Both the position numbers and the translations under genes were made by a program. The notes beneath the pieces were generated by a model. That model saw only the letters and a program-made list of their open reading frames with translations. It had not been told where the DNA came from and did no database searches. A stretch of 8,707 nucleotides of DNA from a virus. The DNA is taken from the UHGV virus genome UHGV-0140516; one strand, written 5' to 3'. This document shows positions 1,111-7,532 of this stretch, piece by piece. Positions within the stretch are counted from its first letter, which is position 1. The number at the start of each line of letters is the position of its first letter.

Positions 1111-1320
1111 ATGCGCGAAATAAATGAAGATCGTGTAATCCGTGAAAAAGAATGCAGAGAGCTAACAGGCGTTTGCCGTACAACTCGTTATGAGATGGAA
1201 AAACAAGGCCGCTTTCCCTCCCGTATCAGTCTTGGAGGTCGTTCGGTTGGCTGGGTTAAGTCTGAGGTTATGGAATGGGTTAAAAGCCGGGATCGCATTA
1301 ATTCAGGAAAGGCAGCGTAA
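1111..1320 (+). CDS. alpA: AlpA-type (MerR-like HTH) prophage regulatory protein / excision-transcription regulator
   Basis: The 69-aa product MREINEDRVIREKECRELTGVCRTTRYEMEKQGRFPSRISLGGRSVGWVKSEVMEWVKSR shows the AlpA pattern (HTH, then FP-x-x-I-x-LG-x-R-SVGW-x-x-E-V-x-EW). ATG at 1111 is preceded by AGGG at 1101-1104. The track start at 1027 is GTG with AAGAGG abutting it at no spacing, so it is disfavoured. Confidence 0.75.
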   Translation: MREINEDRVIREKECRELTGVCRTTRYEMEKQGRFPSRISLGGRSVGWVKSEVMEWVKSRDRINSGKAA

Positions 1321-1710
1321 AGGGGAGCATATGACACATAAAACAAAGGCGACCGGGGGCGGTCGCCAATGGGAAAACACTAAACATAAGCCCGAACATC
1401 ATAGCGATTTGCTGGCTGGTGGGCAATGTGATCAGTGTACTGGCTTGCTGGTGGGCTATTCCTGCTCTTTAGCATCGCCATGCTGCGATGTTTTCCAGGT
1501 ATGCGATCCCATTTTTGTGCGCCTGTACTCTTTAAGGAACTTCTCAAGGACAAACGCACATGGTGCGAATCTCTCCGGTTCATGTTCGTTTACCGCATTT
1601 TTGCGTTGTTTTTTCTTGGATGAGGATAATTTCTTTAATGATTTGTCAGTCATCGTAGATACCTGTAACCCTGTGCGTCACAGTTCACCGCACCACGGCA
1701 CTGGTGATGG

Positions 1711-1890
1711 TTACTCCTGCTCTTTGGCCTTCCGGCGCTGGCGGCGTTTGATCTCGCCACGCATGGCTGTAACGATAAACTGCGCGTCTGTTTCGTTTTC
1801 CTCTTTGACCAAATTCATTTCGCTTAAAACTTCTAGAGGGATTCTAGCCGTTTTTTGTTGTGATTTGTTGTTGGTTGTACCCGTTGGCAT
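1711..1890 (-). CDS. Small Arc/Mnt-like ribbon-helix-helix DNA-binding protein (putative repressor), divergent from the replication operon
   Basis: Internal Met of the 115-aa minus ORF. ATG at 1890-1888 is preceded by a strong SD (AAGGAGG, complement of 1896-1902) at 5-6 nt spacing. The 59-aa product MPTGTTNNKSQQKTARIPLEVLSEMNLVKEENETDAQFIVTAMRGEIKRRQRRKAKEQE aligns with P22 Arc (RWPREVL / AEENGRSVNSEIYQRV versus RIPLEVL / KEENETDAQFIVTAMR). Basic C-terminal tail. Confidence 0.55.
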   Translation of the reverse strand: MPTGTTNNKSQQKTARIPLEVLSEMNLVKEENETDAQFIVTAMRGEIKRRQRRKAKEQE

Positions 1891-1951
1891 TACTGGCCTC
1901 CTTACTGTTAGGTGGCGTTCAGTATACGTAGAAAAAAAAATAAAAAAAGGC

Positions 1952-2002
1952 TTGAAGTGCAAGTCACCTAAAAGTAGCATAATCTTCAAAGGTGACTTGC
2001 AC
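1952..2002 (+). promoter_or_regulatory. Candidate sigma70 promoter for the replication operon, overlapped by a 13-bp perfect inverted repeat (putative operator)
   Basis: -35 TTGAAG at 1952-1957, 17-bp spacer, -10 TAGCAT at 1975-1980 (CATAAT at 1978-1983 as alternative). Inverted repeat GTGCAAGTCACCT at 1957-1969 and AGGTGACTTGCAC at 1990-2002 brackets the -10. On the opposite strand, a TATACT -10 (complement of 1921-1926) lies upstream of the RHH gene. Confidence 0.4.
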
Positions 2003-2083
2003 CTTAAAGACAAAGCCCCGCAAGTGTCGTTACCACTCGCAGGGCTTCTAACCACCAACGATAACGATAGTATCGAGGTAGCT

Positions 2084-2287
2084 ATGAGAAATCATACCAC
2101 ACACCCGCAAGGGCGGGACTCGCACAACCTGAATAAATACATCTGGCGTTTTATCGCCCTGAGCACGGCACAACCGCGCGTGATTACCATTGAGGCCACC
2201 AGCGAACAGGAAGCCCGCCAGCAATCCCCGGCTGGCTGCGTGATGGTATTCGCCGCCCGTATTCGTCAGGGGGTGTGCCATGCCTGA
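2084..2287 (+). CDS. Small hypothetical protein (67 aa), first gene of the replication operon; possibly of the short Icd-like family seen next to P4-type primases (unverified)
   Basis: ATG at 2084 with GAGG at 2075-2078. It is the 3' part of the long 1190..2287 track ORF, and only this part has a start and RBS. Product MRNHTTHPQGRDSHNLNKYIWRFIALSTAQPRVITIEATSEQEARQQSPAGCVMVFAARIRQGVCHA. Its stop overlaps the start of the next ORF (2280/2287). Confidence 0.5.
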   Translation: MRNHTTHPQGRDSHNLNKYIWRFIALSTAQPRVITIEATSEQEARQQSPAGCVMVFAARIRQGVCHA

Positions 2288-2606: not shown

Positions 2607-2906
2607 ATGAGAACATATTTATCTGGCTTGACTGCCAGCGGTTATGCACACCCCAAAATTATCCCCGGCGCTATTTATCTGGATAAGAACGGTAACAGAG
2701 TAACGGTAAAAGAACTGATGTTTGACCGTGTGTATTTTATTCGTGATGGATATTCATTTCATAGTTCGCTGAACGTGGAGATCTTTATTAGCAGATTCAG
2801 GCGGGAAATCCCGCTTTCCGGAAATAACCATGTGTCATGTCTGGATGTTGATAAAAAACTACAGGAACTGAAAAACATGATTGCCGCGTGGAGAGAGCAG
2901 AAATGA
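2607..2906 (+). CDS. Hypothetical protein (99 aa), unknown function
   Basis: Starts 7 nt after the upstream stop. Its TGA (2904-2906) overlaps the primase ATG (2903-2905) in an ATGA arrangement. No recognisable motif. Confidence 0.5.
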   Translation: MRTYLSGLTASGYAHPKIIPGAIYLDKNGNRVTVKELMFDRVYFIRDGYSFHSSLNVEIFISRFRREIPLSGNNHVSCLDVDKKLQELKNMIAAWREQK

Positions 2907-4720
2907 AAAAAGCGCCAAATTTAAAACACCAGCCGCGTGACAAAATGACGGAAGTCATCATTTTTGCGGGTAGTAATGCGTGGGCACATGCGAAGCAGTG
3001 GCAGGAACAGGACGGGCGACTGGCTGGCGATAACGTGCCTCCTGTCTGGCTTGGAGAGCAACAACTTGCCGAACTGGACAACCTGCAAATCGTACCGGAC
3101 GGACGCTATCGCGTGCGTCTCTATCAGGCGGGGTTATTGCGTCCGGGGCTTGTTAATACCATCGGGCAGAAACTGGCAGTGGCAGGTGTCAGGGATGCTG
3201 ATTATTACCCTGAAGGAATGCACAGCCAGAAACGGGAGAACTGGCGCGAATATCTGGAACGTGAACGGGCAGAGCAGGCGGAAAAGAAAAAGGTAGTTGA
3301 ACTGCCTGTAAAGAAAAAAGAGCGGGTAAAAGACGATAACGCTTCATCACTGGCGCTTAACCAGATGGGAGCAAGTCAACGCGGCGAAGTTCTCCTGGCA
3401 CATTATGGCGGTGAACTGGCGATTCATGCTGACTCTGACACTGTTCACCATTACAACGGCGTTGTATGGGAGCCAGTACAGGATAAAGAATTACAGCGAG
3501 CTATGGCACAGATTTTCATTGATGCGGAGATCAGCTATTCGCAGAACGCCATTAAATCGGCGGTCGATACCATGAAGTTAAGTTTGCCTGTAATGGGGAA
3601 TACAGCCCGTAACCTGATTGGATTCAGTAACGGGGTATTTGATACCAGAACAGGTAATTTTCGGGAGCATAACAAAAACGACTGGTTGTTAATTGCCAGT
3701 GAATTACCTTTCAGCCCACCAGCAGAGGGGGAAACGCTGGCAACACATGCGCCGAATTTCTGGAAGTGGTTACGCCGTTCGGTGGCTGAGAATGACCGCA
3801 AGGCGGATCGCGTACTGGCTGCATTATTCATGGTGCTGGCGAACCGGTACGACTGGCAGTTATTCATTGAGGTAACAGGTCCAGGGGGAAGTGGTAAAAG
3901 CGTGATGGCGGAGATTTGCACCATGCTGGCGGGTAAGGCCAACACAGTATCGGCAAGCATGAAGGCGCTGGAAGATGCAAGGGAACGCGCGTTAGTGGTT
4001 GGCTTTTCGCTGATTATCATGCCGGATATGACCCGCTACGCTGGTGATGGGGCAGGGATTAAGGCTATTACAGGCGGTGACAAGGTGGCAATTGACCCGA
4101 AACACAAAGCCCCCTACTCAACGCGTATTCCGGCAGTAGTGCTGGCGGTTAACAATAACGCCATGTCATTCAGTGACCGCAGCGGGGGGATCTCACGTCG
4201 TCGGGTGATATTCAATTTTTCGGAAGTTGTACCGGAGAACGAACGCGATCCAATGCTGGCGGAAAAAATAGAAGGTGAGCTGGCGGTAGTGATTCGCCAT
4301 CTGCTTACACGGTTTGCTGACCAGGACGAAGCCAGACGCCTGTTATATGAGCAGCAGAAATCTGAAGAAGCACTGGCGATAAAGCGAGAGGGGGATTCGC
4401 TGGTGGACTTCTGCGGCTATCTCATGGCGTCGGTAATGTGTGATGGCCTGTTAGTGGGTAATGCTGAAATTGTGCCATTCAGCCCACGCAGGTATCTCTA
4501 TCATGCCTATCTGGCTTATATGAGGGCACATGGGTTTGGTAAACCTGTAACACTGACGCGCTTCGGTAAAGATATGCCGGGGGCAATGGCGGAATATGGC
4601 AGGGAGTATATGAAACGGAAAACGAAGCACGGTTTTTGTTCAAACGTGACACTGACGGAGGAATCAGAAGACTGGATGCCATCATGTGTATCGGTCACTA
4701 ATGACGATAGTAAAAATTAA
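2903..4720 (+). CDS. P4-alpha-like primase/helicase replication protein (D5-type NTPase)
   Basis: 605-aa ORF. ATG at 2903 is preceded by GGAGAGAG at 2890-2897; the track start at 2888 is GTG. Walker A GPGGSGKS is encoded at 3878-3901, in frame. Followed immediately by the cognate-type iteron array. Large and well anchored. Confidence 0.85.
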   Translation: MKKAPNLKHQPRDKMTEVIIFAGSNAWAHAKQWQEQDGRLAGDNVPPVWLGEQQLAELDNLQIVPDGRYRVRLYQAGLLRPGLVNTIGQKLAVAGVRDADYYPEGMHSQKRENWREYLERERAEQAEKKKVVELPVKKKERVKDDNASSLALNQMGASQRGEVLLAHYGGELAIHADSDTVHHYNGVVWEPVQDKELQRAMAQIFIDAEISYSQNAIKSAVDTMKLSLPVMGNTARNLIGFSNGVFDTRTGNFREHNKNDWLLIASELPFSPPAEGETLATHAPNFWKWLRRSVAENDRKADRVLAALFMVLANRYDWQLFIEVTGPGGSGKSVMAEICTMLAGKANTVSASMKALEDARERALVVGFSLIIMPDMTRYAGDGAGIKAITGGDKVAIDPKHKAPYSTRIPAVVLAVNNNAMSFSDRSGGISRRRVIFNFSEVVPENERDPMLAEKIEGELAVVIRHLLTRFADQDEARRLLYEQQKSEEALAIKREGDSLVDFCGYLMASVMCDGLLVGNAEIVPFSPRRYLYHAYLAYMRAHGFGKPVTLTRFGKDMPGAMAEYGREYMKRKTKHGFCSNVTLTEESEDWMPSCVSVTNDDSKN

Positions 4721-4731
4721 ACTTATGGAAT

Positions 4732-4963
4732 AACTGTTCACCACTGTTCACCCTGTCATAAATATCTTTTATATCAGTATATTATAGGGTGAACAGTTAT
4801 TTATGAACTGTTCACCAAACTATTCACTGTTCACCTTTTTGATTGTTTATTGAGCTTCAAGGGTGAACAGTGGTGAACAGTTGGTGAATAGTTTTTGTGA
4901 AACTGTTCACCCCTTAACATTATGAATTAAAAGATAAAATATCAAAAGGTGAACAGGTGAAGG
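4732..4963. repeat. Replication-origin iteron array (P4 ori/crr type): at least 9 perfect TGTTCACC / GGTGAACA octamers in both orientations with AT-rich spacers
   Basis: Plus-orientation TGTTCACC at 4735-4742, 4745-4752, 4809-4816, 4828-4835 and 4904-4911. Minus-orientation GGTGAACA at 4788-4795, 4862-4869, 4872-4879 and 4948-4955. Degenerate copies at 4821-4828, 4883-4890 and 4956-4963. AT-rich stretches at 4760-4786 and 4918-4946 are candidate unwinding elements. TGTTCACC is the octamer I recall as the P4 alpha-protein binding iteron. Confidence 0.8.
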
Positions 4964-5007
4964 GTTAAAACGCAAAAATTTTAATTTACTGCTGTGAGAT
5001 AAAGCCT

Positions 5008-5253
5008 ATGACAGCGAAGCACACAAAAAAATCACAATCGCACGCCCTTGATTTGACGGAACACTGGTTAAGGGTGTCGATAAAAATCATCGACCGCAAC
5101 GCCGGGGAAGGATATGCGAAAGCACATCCCGAACTGATTAGCGCATTCATGACAACGGCAGCTGCAAACTTTGCCACGCTGACAGAACGGGAGATTGCCG
5201 AAGCGGAACAGGTGACAACCATCAACGTTAAAACCGGAGAGCAGACAGCATGA
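5008..5253 (+). CDS. Hypothetical protein (81 aa), translationally coupled to the SSB-like gene
   Basis: ORF starts just downstream of the iteron array. Its TGA (5251-5253) overlaps the ATG (5250-5252) of the next gene. No recognisable motif; weak RBS. Confidence 0.45.
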   Translation: MTAKHTKKSQSHALDLTEHWLRVSIKIIDRNAGEGYAKAHPELISAFMTTAAANFATLTEREIAEAEQVTTINVKTGEQTA

Positions 5254-5672
5254 CAGCACAGATAGCGGCTTACGGGCGGCTGGTGGCTGACCCGCAGTTA
5301 AAGACCACCAGCAAGGGTACACAAATGACGATGGCTAGTATGGCGGTCCCCCTTCCGTGCAGCCAGGCAGATGACGGAACGGCGACGATGTGGTTATCCG
5401 TCCTGGCGTTTGGCAGACAGGCCGACGCACTGGCAAAACACCACAAAGGCGAACTGGTGAGCGTGGCGGGTAACATGCAGGTAAGCCAGTGGACAGGCCA
5501 GAACGGCGAAACGCGGCAGGGCTGGCAGGTTATCGCAGACAGCGTAATCAGTGCGAGAACGGCGCGACCGGGCGGCAAAAAAGGCCAGCAAGGGCAGGCT
5601 ACTGACGCACTGAACAGGGCAAAACAACAGGCGGGTAACGATGATCCGTACGGGGATAACATACCGTTTTAA
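5250..5672 (+). CDS. ssb: Single-stranded DNA-binding protein family (short SSB-like OB-fold protein with C-terminal DNIPF tip)
   Basis: Aligns by eye to E. coli SSB across the OB fold (G-x-L-x-x-DP; W-x-x-V-x-x-FG-x-x-A; KG-x-x-V-x-x-x-G-x-x-x-x-x-x-WT-x-Q-x-G-x-x-R). Ends in DDPYGDNIPF, resembling the SSB DDDIPF partner-binding tip. Shorter than host SSB (140 versus about 178 aa). Confidence 0.7.
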   Translation: MTAQIAAYGRLVADPQLKTTSKGTQMTMASMAVPLPCSQADDGTATMWLSVLAFGRQADALAKHHKGELVSVAGNMQVSQWTGQNGETRQGWQVIADSVISARTARPGGKKGQQGQATDALNRAKQQAGNDDPYGDNIPF

Positions 5673-5923: not shown

Positions 5924-6130
5924 ATGGCAGAAGAGAAAAAAGGCGGGGTGACAGTTTACATAAGCCCAGACATCGTGGAGGCGCTCAAGGAACGCCACCA
6001 GCAGAACGTAAAAGCAGGCATTGCGGCAGGACTTGAGCCGCTGGCGATGGTTGAGCCGTCAACAGGCTGGCAGGTACGCGCCTATTTACGCGCGGCGCTG
6101 GGCATGAATCAGACTCATGGGGGTGAATAA
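5924..6130 (+). CDS. Hypothetical protein (68 aa), first ORF of the head module
   Basis: ATG at 5924 with AAAGAGGAA at 5906-5914. The track start at 5891 is GTG inside the palindrome, so it is disfavoured. The stop TAA overlaps the capsid-gene ATG (TAATG at 6128-6132). Confidence 0.5.
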   Translation: MAEEKKGGVTVYISPDIVEALKERHQQNVKAGIAAGLEPLAMVEPSTGWQVRAYLRAALGMNQTHGGE

Positions 6131-7185
6131 TGACAGGCAAAGCAACGGCACTTAACACTAACCAGCTTTTCGCGTACCTGAATCGTGGGGATATTTCGGA
6201 ATTTAAATTCAGTCCGCTGTTTACGTCGCTGTTTTTCCCGAACGTGGCAACCTTCAACACGCAGGACATCATGTTAGATACCCTGGATATTGAAGAAGTC
6301 ACCATGTCGGCTTTTTGTTCGCCTATGGTGGGGAGTCAGGTTCAGCGCGATAAAGGGTACGAAACAAGCACTATCCGCCCTGGCTACATGAAACCAAAAC
6401 ACGAAATCGATCCATCAAAAACCATCATGCGCATGGCTGGAGAAGATCCGGCACAGCTTAACGATCCAACTTATCGCCGTATGCGCCTGATTACTGGCAA
6501 CATGCGCCGCCAGGTAAACGCTATTAAAGCTCGCATAGAATGGCTGGCGGTGAATGCGGTCACGACCGGAAAAAACATCATTGAGGGCGAAGGAATAAAT
6601 AGATACGAAATCGATTGGAAAATCCCGACTAAAAACATCATTACGCAGGGATCGGGCAAAAAGTGGTCTGAGGCAGATAAGGAAACACACGATCCAATCT
6701 ATGACATCGAACTATACACCGATCAGGCTGGTTGCCCCGCCAACGTCATGATTATGGGCGCTGAGGTATGGCGCACGTTACGCAGCTTTAAAAAATTCCG
6801 TGAACTGTACGATCTTTCCCGTGGTTCAGAATCCGCCGCAGAGCTGGCCTGTAAAAACCTGGGCGAAGTAGTGAGCTTTAAAGGCTATCTGGGTGATCTG
6901 GCCCTTATCGTCTATTCCGGCAAATACACCGACAGCGATGGCACCGAAAAATATTTCCTTGAGCCTGATTTGCTTGTCCTGGGCAACACTAACAATAAAG
7001 GGCTGGTGGCCTATGGTGCGATTATGGATCCGGAAGCGGTAAGAACTGGCGCAACGCAAAACATGTACTACCCGAAAAACTGGATTGAGGATGGCGATCC
7101 GGCGATTGAGTACGTGCAGACGCACAGCGCACCGCAGCCGGTACCGGCAGATATTCGCAAATTTGTTACCGTCAAAATTGCTTAA
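6130..7185 (+). CDS. Major capsid protein, lambda gpE family
   Basis: 351-aa product aligns to lambda gpE over its whole length by eye: KFxPLF...LFF near the N-terminus, PGY(V/M)KPKHE, DP-x-x-L-x-DP-x-YRR-x-R-x-I-x-x-NMR, SYKG / SFKG, VVYSG / IVYSG, LGNT, YPKNW and a C-terminal GDPA. Similar length (351 versus 341 aa). Confidence 0.9.
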   Translation: MTGKATALNTNQLFAYLNRGDISEFKFSPLFTSLFFPNVATFNTQDIMLDTLDIEEVTMSAFCSPMVGSQVQRDKGYETSTIRPGYMKPKHEIDPSKTIMRMAGEDPAQLNDPTYRRMRLITGNMRRQVNAIKARIEWLAVNAVTTGKNIIEGEGINRYEIDWKIPTKNIITQGSGKKWSEADKETHDPIYDIELYTDQAGCPANVMIMGAEVWRTLRSFKKFRELYDLSRGSESAAELACKNLGEVVSFKGYLGDLALIVYSGKYTDSDGTEKYFLEPDLLVLGNTNNKGLVAYGAIMDPEAVRTGATQNMYYPKNWIEDGDPAIEYVQTHSAPQPVPADIRKFVTVKIA

Positions 7186-7196
7186 CGGGGGATTCT

Positions 7197-7532
7197 ATGA
7201 ACACTCCATACATTGAGTTATTTGCAGGCAGTCAGCAGGTATCCACGACGCTGGTACATTTTGCCGCTGATGCTGGAGTTATTCAGGAATTTACCCCGCT
7301 GATGCTGGCGGACAATGGCGAGTTTAAGCCGTGGGATGGTCAGGAATCTGGCAAGGCTGTTTATCTGACCTCGTACCCCGTTGACACGTCGACGCAGAAA
7401 TCAGCACAGTGCTATAAGACGGGGATATTTAATATCGCCGCCGTTAACTGGCCTGAGAGCGTCGACACCGATGCGAAAAAATGCGCCGCCTTTGCGGGTT
7501 CTGGCGTATCCGTTCAGCCACTGGCCCGATAA
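7197..7532 (+). CDS. Head decoration protein, lambda gpD family
   Basis: 111-aa product shares with lambda gpD the motifs TPLML, WDG, YK(S/T)G-x-F, WPE and KK-x-x-AFAG. Near-identical length (111 versus 110 aa). RBS GGGGGA upstream. Confidence 0.8.
   Translation: MNTPYIELFAGSQQVSTTLVHFAADAGVIQEFTPLMLADNGEFKPWDGQESGKAVYLTSYPVDTSTQKSAQCYKTGIFNIAAVNWPESVDTDAKKCAAFAGSGVSVQPLAR

Follow-up and report, generated by a model that had tools for sequence, protein, structure and literature searches.

A palindromic array of P4-type iterons downstream of pri-rep as the probable replication origin of a Gram-negative phage-inducible chromosomal island

Results

A dense iteron array directly follows the pri-rep gene

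The virus genome UHGV-0140516, an 8707-bp stretch of DNA that is referred to here in its entirety as the window, is by its gene content an EcCICFT073-type Gram-negative phage-inducible chromosomal island (PICI) of Escherichia coli. Its initiator-helicase gene, pri-rep, is followed at once by a cluster of short repeats (iterons), which we propose to be the replication origin of the island. An exact search for the octamer TGTTCACC returned ten copies in the window, nine of them between 4735 and 4955, i.e., nine perfect sites within 221 bp. The sites on the + strand start at 4735, 4745, 4809, 4828, and 4904, and those on the – strand at 4788, 4862, 4872, and 4948. The mean chance expectation is 0.27 copies per window, and none of 200 dinucleotide-preserving shuffles reached ten. 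Allowing mismatches to the 10-mer ACTGTTCACC added three degenerate copies, which brings the array to twelve sites at 4733–4965.

2903..4720, + strand: pri-rep, initiator-helicase, 605 amino acids (aa)
4819–4828, + strand: degenerate iteron, ACTATTCACT
4883–4892, – strand: degenerate iteron, ACTATTCACC
4956–4965, – strand: degenerate iteron, ACCCTTCACC

The pri-rep stop codon occupies 4718–4720 and the first extended iteron begins 13 bp downstream; the spacers of the array are 71–86% A+T. The original prediction for this locus had described just such an arrangement, i.e., at least nine perfect and three degenerate octamers in both orientations, with A+T-rich spacers, directly after the primase/helicase stop, and the exact and mismatch searches agree with it, except that the end of the array moves from 4963 to 4965, where the last degenerate copy stops. 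The extended unit that had been proposed, (A/C)ACTGTTCACC (prefix (A/C)AC), is present in eight of the nine perfect copies and fails for one. In a pattern scan, the array contained no DnaA box (≤1 mismatch), IHF consensus, or GATC, the elements that lie beside the iterons in classical iteron plasmid origins, and in this it differs from them. A full-text literature search with the bare octamer matched primer sequences only.

The tenth perfect copy lies within the initiator gene (octamer at 3442, 10-mer ACTGTTCACC at 3440–3449), as does an inverted near-copy, GGTGAACTGG, at 3410–3419. Both stretches encode the conserved peptide GGELAIHADSDTVHHY, the 10-mer coding for part of DTVHHY, and the motif is not kept at the DNA level in the related loci L008 and L003 and is absent from EcCIRM13514 and vB_KppS-Ant. 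Because the coding of a conserved peptide accounts for the 10-mer at 3440 and the DNA motif is lost in relatives, we rejected it as an ori2-like internal site and treat the intragenic copy as probably a coding coincidence.

The array is one six-iteron module present twice in inverted orientation

The twelve sites resolve into two copies of a single six-iteron module, facing each other across a dyad axis, and each copy encloses an A+T-rich spacer.

4733..4835, – strand: left origin module, with sites at 4735 (+), 4745 (+), 4788 (–), 4809 (+), 4821 (+, degenerate), and 4828 (+)
4753..4787, no strand: left A+T-rich spacer between inverted iterons, 80% A+T; candidate DNA-unwinding element
4836..4861, no strand: 26-bp central spacer on the dyad axis, 73% A+T
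4862..4965, + strand: right origin module, with sites at 4862 (–), 4872 (–), 4883 (–, degenerate), 4904 (+), 4948 (–), and 4956 (–, degenerate)
4912..4947, no strand: right A+T-rich spacer, 83% A+T; candidate DNA-unwinding element

In the GenBank record of satellite P4, TGTTCACC is annotated as the 'ori type 1 repeat' in both ori (9310–9413) and crr (4291–4590), as the original prediction had it, and crr directly follows the stop codon of the alpha gene. Written as centre-to-centre distances (> and < for sites on the + and – strand, and an opening bracket for a site with one mismatch), the whole window array reads > 10 > 43 < 21 > 19 > 34 < 10 < 11 ( 21 > 44 <, two more degenerate sites making up the twelve, and P4 ori1 reads < 10 < 11 < 22 > 43 < 10 <. 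The spacing in the right module is 10, 11, 21, 44, and 8 bp, compared to 10, 11, 22, 43, and 10 bp in P4 ori1, and the left module, when read on the – strand, has the order and spacing of P4 ori1 as well. Each half thus shows the ori1 layout, taken here as three sites and a fourth in inverted orientation, followed by ~35 bp of A+T-rich spacer and two more sites, at about helical spacing. Both halves, the halves of two related elements, P4 ori1, and two crr repeats fall into one register in a MAFFT alignment (A1), with the shared frame GGTGAACA n2 GGTGAACA n3 GGTGAACA n13 TGTTCACC, ~35 A+T-rich bases, and GGTGAACAG + GTGAACA; in this alignment the right spacer (4912–4947) lines up with the A+T-rich spacer of P4 ori1. 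The likeness was also detected by blastn against a phage collection, in which window 4857–4929 matched P4 9304–9378 at 78.7% identity (E 4e-6), a segment annotated 'origin of DNA replication, ori type 1 repeat x4'.

The two halves are joined by an inverted repeat (I1) of 56 nt, with arms at 4763–4818 and 4881–4936 that are 75% complementary and take in spacer DNA, and the single strand 4726–4972 folds into one long hairpin (z –9.4) centred on the central spacer. The left spacer, 4753–4787, is the least stable 35-bp duplex in the window (nearest-neighbour dG –33.9 kcal/mol, z 3.5), and 4913–4947, in the right spacer, is the third least stable (z 3.4).

By position, the window array corresponds to P4 crr; by sequence and layout, it corresponds to P4 ori1 twice, inverted. 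P4 needs two separate cis sites, crr as well as the distant ori, and the array might accordingly be read as a crr-like cis enhancer or a copy-number (handcuffing) locus that is bound by the initiator while replication starts elsewhere in the island; its place directly after the initiator gene, as in P4 crr, would fit. We consider this unlikely, since the halves match ori1 and not the crr repeat in the number, order, and spacing of their sites, and since they enclose the least stable DNA of the window. The search of the island for a second cluster, which had been suggested in the original prediction, is also unfavourable to it: neither the window nor three complete islands contain a second, crr-like cluster, the next densest 250-bp windows in these sequences holding two sites at ≤1 mismatch, so that the bipartite arrangement of P4 (ori1 plus crr) is not found here.

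Pri-Rep joins a P4 alpha-like helicase and origin-binding domain to an unrelated N-terminus

2903..3310, + strand: N-terminal domain of Pri-Rep, ~135 aa, in place of the zinc-ribbon and Toprim primase region of P4 alpha
4391..4681, + strand: winged-helix origin-binding domain of Pri-Rep, presumed iteron reader, from a phmmer match to 1KA8

The initiator is 605 aa long if translation starts at the ATG at 2903 and 610 aa long if it starts at the GTG at 2888, and its domains are, in order, the N-terminal domain, D5_N, a superfamily 3 (SF3) ATPase, and a C-terminal winged-helix origin-binding domain. It matches Pfam D5_N, DUF5906 (the SF3 ATPase), Pox_D5, and, weakly, the papillomavirus helicase family PPV_E1_C (E 1.7e-4, below the curated cut-off), as well as TIGR01613 'primase_Cterm'; alignment A3 shows no variation in either the Walker A motif GPGGSGKS or the RRR motif. 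Identity to P4 alpha is 50.7% and confined to aa 150–600, while identity to the Pri-Rep of EcCICFT073 is 48% overall. Binding by the origin-binding domain of P4 alpha has been shown biochemically, and the C-terminal domain of the window protein is ~46% identical to it. In a phmmer search of the PDB, residues 502–598 of the 610-aa open reading frame (ORF) matched 1KA8 with E 9.1e-24; judging by the paper title that PMC2777425 cites for it, this entry holds the winged-helix domain with which P4 alpha binds its origin.

The N-terminal region is where the two initiators part. The original prediction had put the window protein at about 170 aa shorter than a P4 alpha of roughly 777 aa and had added that domain content may differ, and both statements hold (605 versus 777 aa). 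Whereas the first 319 residues of P4 alpha match Zn_Ribbon_Prim and Toprim_3, the first 166 residues of the window initiator match no Pfam family even at E≤10, and a zinc-ribbon plus Toprim (DnaG-type) primase domain of the P4 type is not present. Where alpha has a region of ~320 aa, the window protein has an unrelated N-terminal domain of ~150 aa, and it is therefore 172 aa shorter. Judged by its domains, it combines a helicase with an origin-binding domain, and there is no support for 'primase' as its annotated function. Over its first ~130 residues, this N-terminal domain shares 73% identity with the N-terminus of the otherwise unrelated RepA-type helicase of EcCI042, which marks the domain as a portable module. 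An AlphaFold model built with 25 sequences is confident for residues 1–130 (pLDDT about 90). A profile comparison of the domain with alpha-type N-termini, i.e., the P4 Toprim region, gave no relation (probability 0.2%), a fold search returned weak resemblance only, and no canonical Glu or DxD motif was seen among its conserved residues.

Among relatives, a similar helicase core (70–90% identical to that of the window) bears three types of N-terminus (L022, from Enterobacter hormaechei; L020/L021; L023–L039; and L040–L089), namely the window type, a ~130-aa type with the motif SDALFSCLYLWVNGH that is unrelated to the others, and the full zinc-ribbon plus Toprim primase as in P4 alpha. The helicase of L022 is 90% identical to that of the window despite its non-window N-terminus. 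The point of fusion lies just ahead of the conserved LNQMGASQRG.

Iteron class co-varies with the wing of the origin-binding domain

We compared 80 loci from Enterobacterales, found in a scan of one genome per species. An iteron array is present within 400 bp after the gene in nearly every one of them, and elsewhere in the loci the octamer hardly occurs. These distributions speak to the idea that the cluster serves packaging (as a cos/pac site) or recombination, or that it is a family of dispersed repeats without a part in replication. Satellites do bear packaging sites, and the array is strongly palindromic; however, within islands the octamer clusters only at the array, almost every copy in the 80 loci falls within 400 bp after the gene, E. 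coli genomes that carry the array region do so at a median of one place, and the cos site of EcCICFT073 has been mapped apart from its ori (PMC6092414). We regard an explanation of this kind as extremely improbable, and its dispersed-repeat version, which had been named at the outset as an alternative, was not borne out.

The octamers of the 80 loci fall into four classes, TGTTCACC, TGTCTACC, TCTCCACC, and CTGTCCGC, and where the array is complete the four classes have a common spacing (10, 43, 21, 11, 8 in one half and 10, 11, 21, 44, 8 in the other). Octamer class does not track overall protein similarity. The helicases of L014, L019, and L022 are 90–93% identical to that of the window, yet their iterons are TGTCTACC; TGTTCACC is retained by P4 (helicase 51%, C-terminal domain 46% identical) and by 813-aa proteins of Xenorhabdus (helicase 70%). 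Between near-identical proteins of different class, the differences cluster in two parts of the winged-helix domain, its wing and its tail, and hardly touch the putative recognition helix. Relative to the window, L014, L019, and L022 therefore look like a natural specificity swap with putative recognition of TGTCTACC, and we infer that the wing would read the central triplet of the octamer. Within the C-terminal ~60 aa (about 4540–4717), the wing in L014, L019, and L022 versus the window differs by a 5-aa insertion (KCTKGPDKGR versus KRKTKHG). A six-taxon alignment of TGTTCACC arrays showed conservation to be centred on the sites, with 88% invariant columns in iterons compared to 35% in spacers (Fisher p 4e-17).

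Repeats in an intergenic gap may also be operators, through which Pri-Rep or another island protein would control the SSB and capsid genes or pri-rep itself. The array takes up the stretch from pri-rep to the next ORF, and no terminator was detected there, so that the genes are probably co-transcribed through it. Pattern scans of the gap after pri-rep matched no promoter either, and twelve sites in a ~230-bp palindrome with A+T-rich cores resemble an origin and not an operator. P4 has the same sites in ori and crr, not at promoters, and the initiator is the only protein common to P4, the Xenorhabdus elements, and this island that varies with the octamer. Operators as the main role of the array are, in our estimate, very unlikely, although initiator binding at the array may have a regulatory side effect.

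Several elements of one class occur together in single genomes, both in Xenorhabdus ehlersii (L046, L047, L050, L060, and L087) and in E. coli (up to six). With up to five or six same-class elements in one genome, co-residence of satellites of the same specificity is therefore common. A distant relative (34% identity), the Pasteurella satellite Pmp7 (L009), has at 4300–4410 an apparent single reduced module that follows a terminator-like hairpin; the module consists of TCTTCACA, ~36 A+T-rich bases starting with CTTTAAC as in P4 ori1, and then GTGAAGAG + GTGAACAC.

The array belongs to a PICI replication module

The gene order of the window, i.e., int, alpA, DUF4222, pri-rep, array, SSB, and capsid genes, is that of EcCICFT073 (coordinates in Table S1 of PMC6092414). 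Its int, alpA, pri-rep, and morphogenesis genes all read the same way, which is the island context of a Gram-negative PICI.

49–693: tyrosine integrase C-terminus (Pfam)
about 1105–1320: AlpA (Pfam)
2607–2906: DUF4222 (Pfam)
5008..5253, + strand: small ORF of 81 aa after the origin, conserved in place among related PICIs (annotated as a hypothetical protein in L001, L004, L005, and L006); no Pfam or NCBIfam match
5250..5672, + strand: single-stranded DNA-binding protein (SSB), part of the replication module (Pfam SSB, E 4.4e-16)
6130–7185: lambda-E-type major capsid protein (Pfam)
7197–7532: gpD-like decoration protein (Pfam)

A further ORF of 365 aa at 1190–2287 (+) is probably not a real gene; relatives annotate only small genes there (YlcI/YnfO on the opposite strand, and Icd-like). 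The gap between int and alpA (700–1100) has 29–35% G+C.

A 501-bp region around the array is present in 594 of 5426 complete E. coli genomes (about 11%), nearly always on the chromosome and at up to six places per carrying genome. The capsid-forming PICI of O157:H7 at the roxA-phoQ site has the same replication module, with 99.2% identity over the array region, and capsid-forming PICIs replicate upon induction (bioRxiv 10.1101/2022.09.08.507074). The island as a whole is a mosaic, since no complete E. coli genome matches the entire window at high identity. One record, NZ_CP148328.1 (L091), deposited as an E. coli plasmid, is a closed circle of 10,790 bp that amounts to a complete PICI: it holds int, alpA, pri-rep with the iteron array (98.3% identity), a protease/capsid fusion, and a DUF1441 terS-like gene, and the PLSDB gene table, which is incomplete, lists no other replication gene for it. 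This circle is consistent with an episomal state of the PICI.

Discussion

The array as a probable initiator-bound origin

We put at roughly 85% the probability that the array at 4733–4965 is the vegetative replication origin of a Gram-negative PICI, bound by its initiator. This is the best explanation for the clustering of the sites, the homology of the initiator to 1KA8, the common register with P4 ori1, the unstable spacers, the PICI context, the co-variation of octamer and initiator, the conservation of the iterons, and the circular PICI record. An origin 3' of pri-rep is the published organisation of Gram-negative PICI replicons (PMC6092414), and the window has it in full, with sets of iterons around spacer DNA of 80–86% A+T directly 3' of the initiator gene. 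That organisation has been tested for EcCICFT073: a temperature-sensitive plasmid with its pri-ori fragment gave colonies at the restrictive temperature, deletion of pri abolished colony formation, and deletion of ori significantly reduced it (PMC6092414). Together with the 1KA8 homology, this supports the view, already part of the original prediction, that the array is a cis-acting origin coupled to the initiator encoded upstream.

In the mechanism that we propose, Pri-Rep, a P4 alpha-like SF3 helicase, would bind the TGTTCACC iterons through its C-terminal winged-helix domain, as predicted from the homology of this domain to that of P4 and from its co-variation with the octamer class. Sites on one face of the helix, once occupied, would concentrate the protein, which would then melt the two A+T-rich spacers and allow helicase hexamers to load themselves. 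By analogy with P4 alpha, with Rep of the Staphylococcus aureus pathogenicity islands (SaPIs), and with viral SF3 initiators, melting of the spacers and symmetric loading of hexamers appear plausible; the dyad symmetry suggests two hexamers loading in opposite directions, and hence bidirectional replication. Priming would probably come from host DnaG or another factor, because the initiator has no recognisable primase domain. Where P4 is split into ori1 and a distant crr, the PICI has fused both into a single compact palindromic unit.

Several points weigh against this interpretation. Binding, melting, and the position of the start site are all predictions in the case of the window allele. Deletion of ori in EcCICFT073 reduced colony formation and did not abolish it (PMC6092414). 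The initiator has no recognisable primase domain, and the replicon is therefore not self-sufficient in the way that P4 is. With neither promoter nor terminator in the gap, transcription probably runs through the array, which may have a regulatory role. There is one cis site here where P4 needs two. Lastly, the NZ_CP148328.1 circle may be an excision product and not a maintained episome.

Significance

An origin of this kind is already known: PICI origins lie 3' of pri-rep, P4 has type I iterons, and EcCIRM13514 has the same iterons as the window. Nothing here would surprise a specialist in satellite replication. We met no statement in the literature consulted that equates each half with P4 ori1, describes the PICI unit as a palindromic pair of such modules, or notes a specificity common to satellite families, a gap that is not proven, as the iterons in Fig. 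2a of PMC6092414 are given as an image only. The gap that follows the gene in several hundred E. coli genomes, left without annotation in the records that were inspected, can now be annotated as an origin. That the PICI origin consists of two inverted P4 ori1 modules connects two satellite families, treated separately in the literature, through their replication modules. Furthermore, four iteron classes at fixed spacing, together with near-identical helicases that differ mainly in the wing, form a ready-made set for studying how a winged-helix domain reads its site.

A specificity common to co-resident satellites raises the possibility of cross-activation. Tentatively, and with rather low confidence, we suggest that P4-like satellites, classical PICIs, and capsid-forming PICIs of Enterobacteriaceae, although of unrelated types, share an origin specificity (octamer, six-site module, and homologous reader), so that the initiator of one induced satellite could fire or titrate the origins of its co-residents; since the PICI protein has no recognisable primase, PICI replication may further need host DnaG, or an unrecognised function of the portable N-terminal domain that this protein has in common with a RepA-type helicase.

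Comparison with known systems

Papillomavirus E1 and SV40 large T are SF3 helicases with their own origin-binding domain, acting at palindromic short sites with easily melted flanks and forming two hexamers. Their origin-binding domain differs from that of Pri-Rep in fold and position, and a double hexamer at the window array is conjectural. SaPI Rep/ori follows the same logic, with a self-loading helicase-initiator that has a C-terminal winged-helix domain. In SaPIs, this domain binds 6–12 iterons that come directly after rep and flank A+T-rich DNA in opposite orientations (PMC9371898). The SaPI iterons differ in being penta- or hexanucleotides and the primase, Pri, is separate or fused; we liken the two by logic, not by sequence.

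Among the PICIs, EcCI042 has a RepA-type helicase and different iterons (AAAAGTGAGG-like) in the same position. EcCICFT073 shares with the window the island gene order, the position of the array, its number of sites, orientation pattern, and spacing, and the architecture of the initiator, including the N-terminal domain. Its iteron is TGTCTACC, in contrast to TGTTCACC in the window, and the C-terminal domains are only 30% identical. EcCIRM13514, whose Pri-Rep allele is set beside three others in Fig. S10 of PMC6092414, is closer: it has a TGTTCACC array, and its helicase and C-terminal domain are 96% and 85% identical to those of the window.

Satellite P4 differs in three respects. The window array is a single compact palindromic unit after the gene, whereas P4 has ori1 and, 4.5 kb away, crr; alpha has a zinc-ribbon and Toprim primase region and the window initiator does not; and the element here is a PICI with lambda-type capsid genes, without the sid, psu, and delta genes of P4. 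Nevertheless, the two share the identical octamer in multiple copies and both orientations, an ori DNA similarity that blastn detects, the ori1 layout of six sites with a ~35-bp A+T-rich spacer in each half of the array, and an initiator built of D5_N, SF3 helicase, and winged-helix parts, with 51% identity in the helicase and a C-terminal domain homologous to that of alpha (46% identity).
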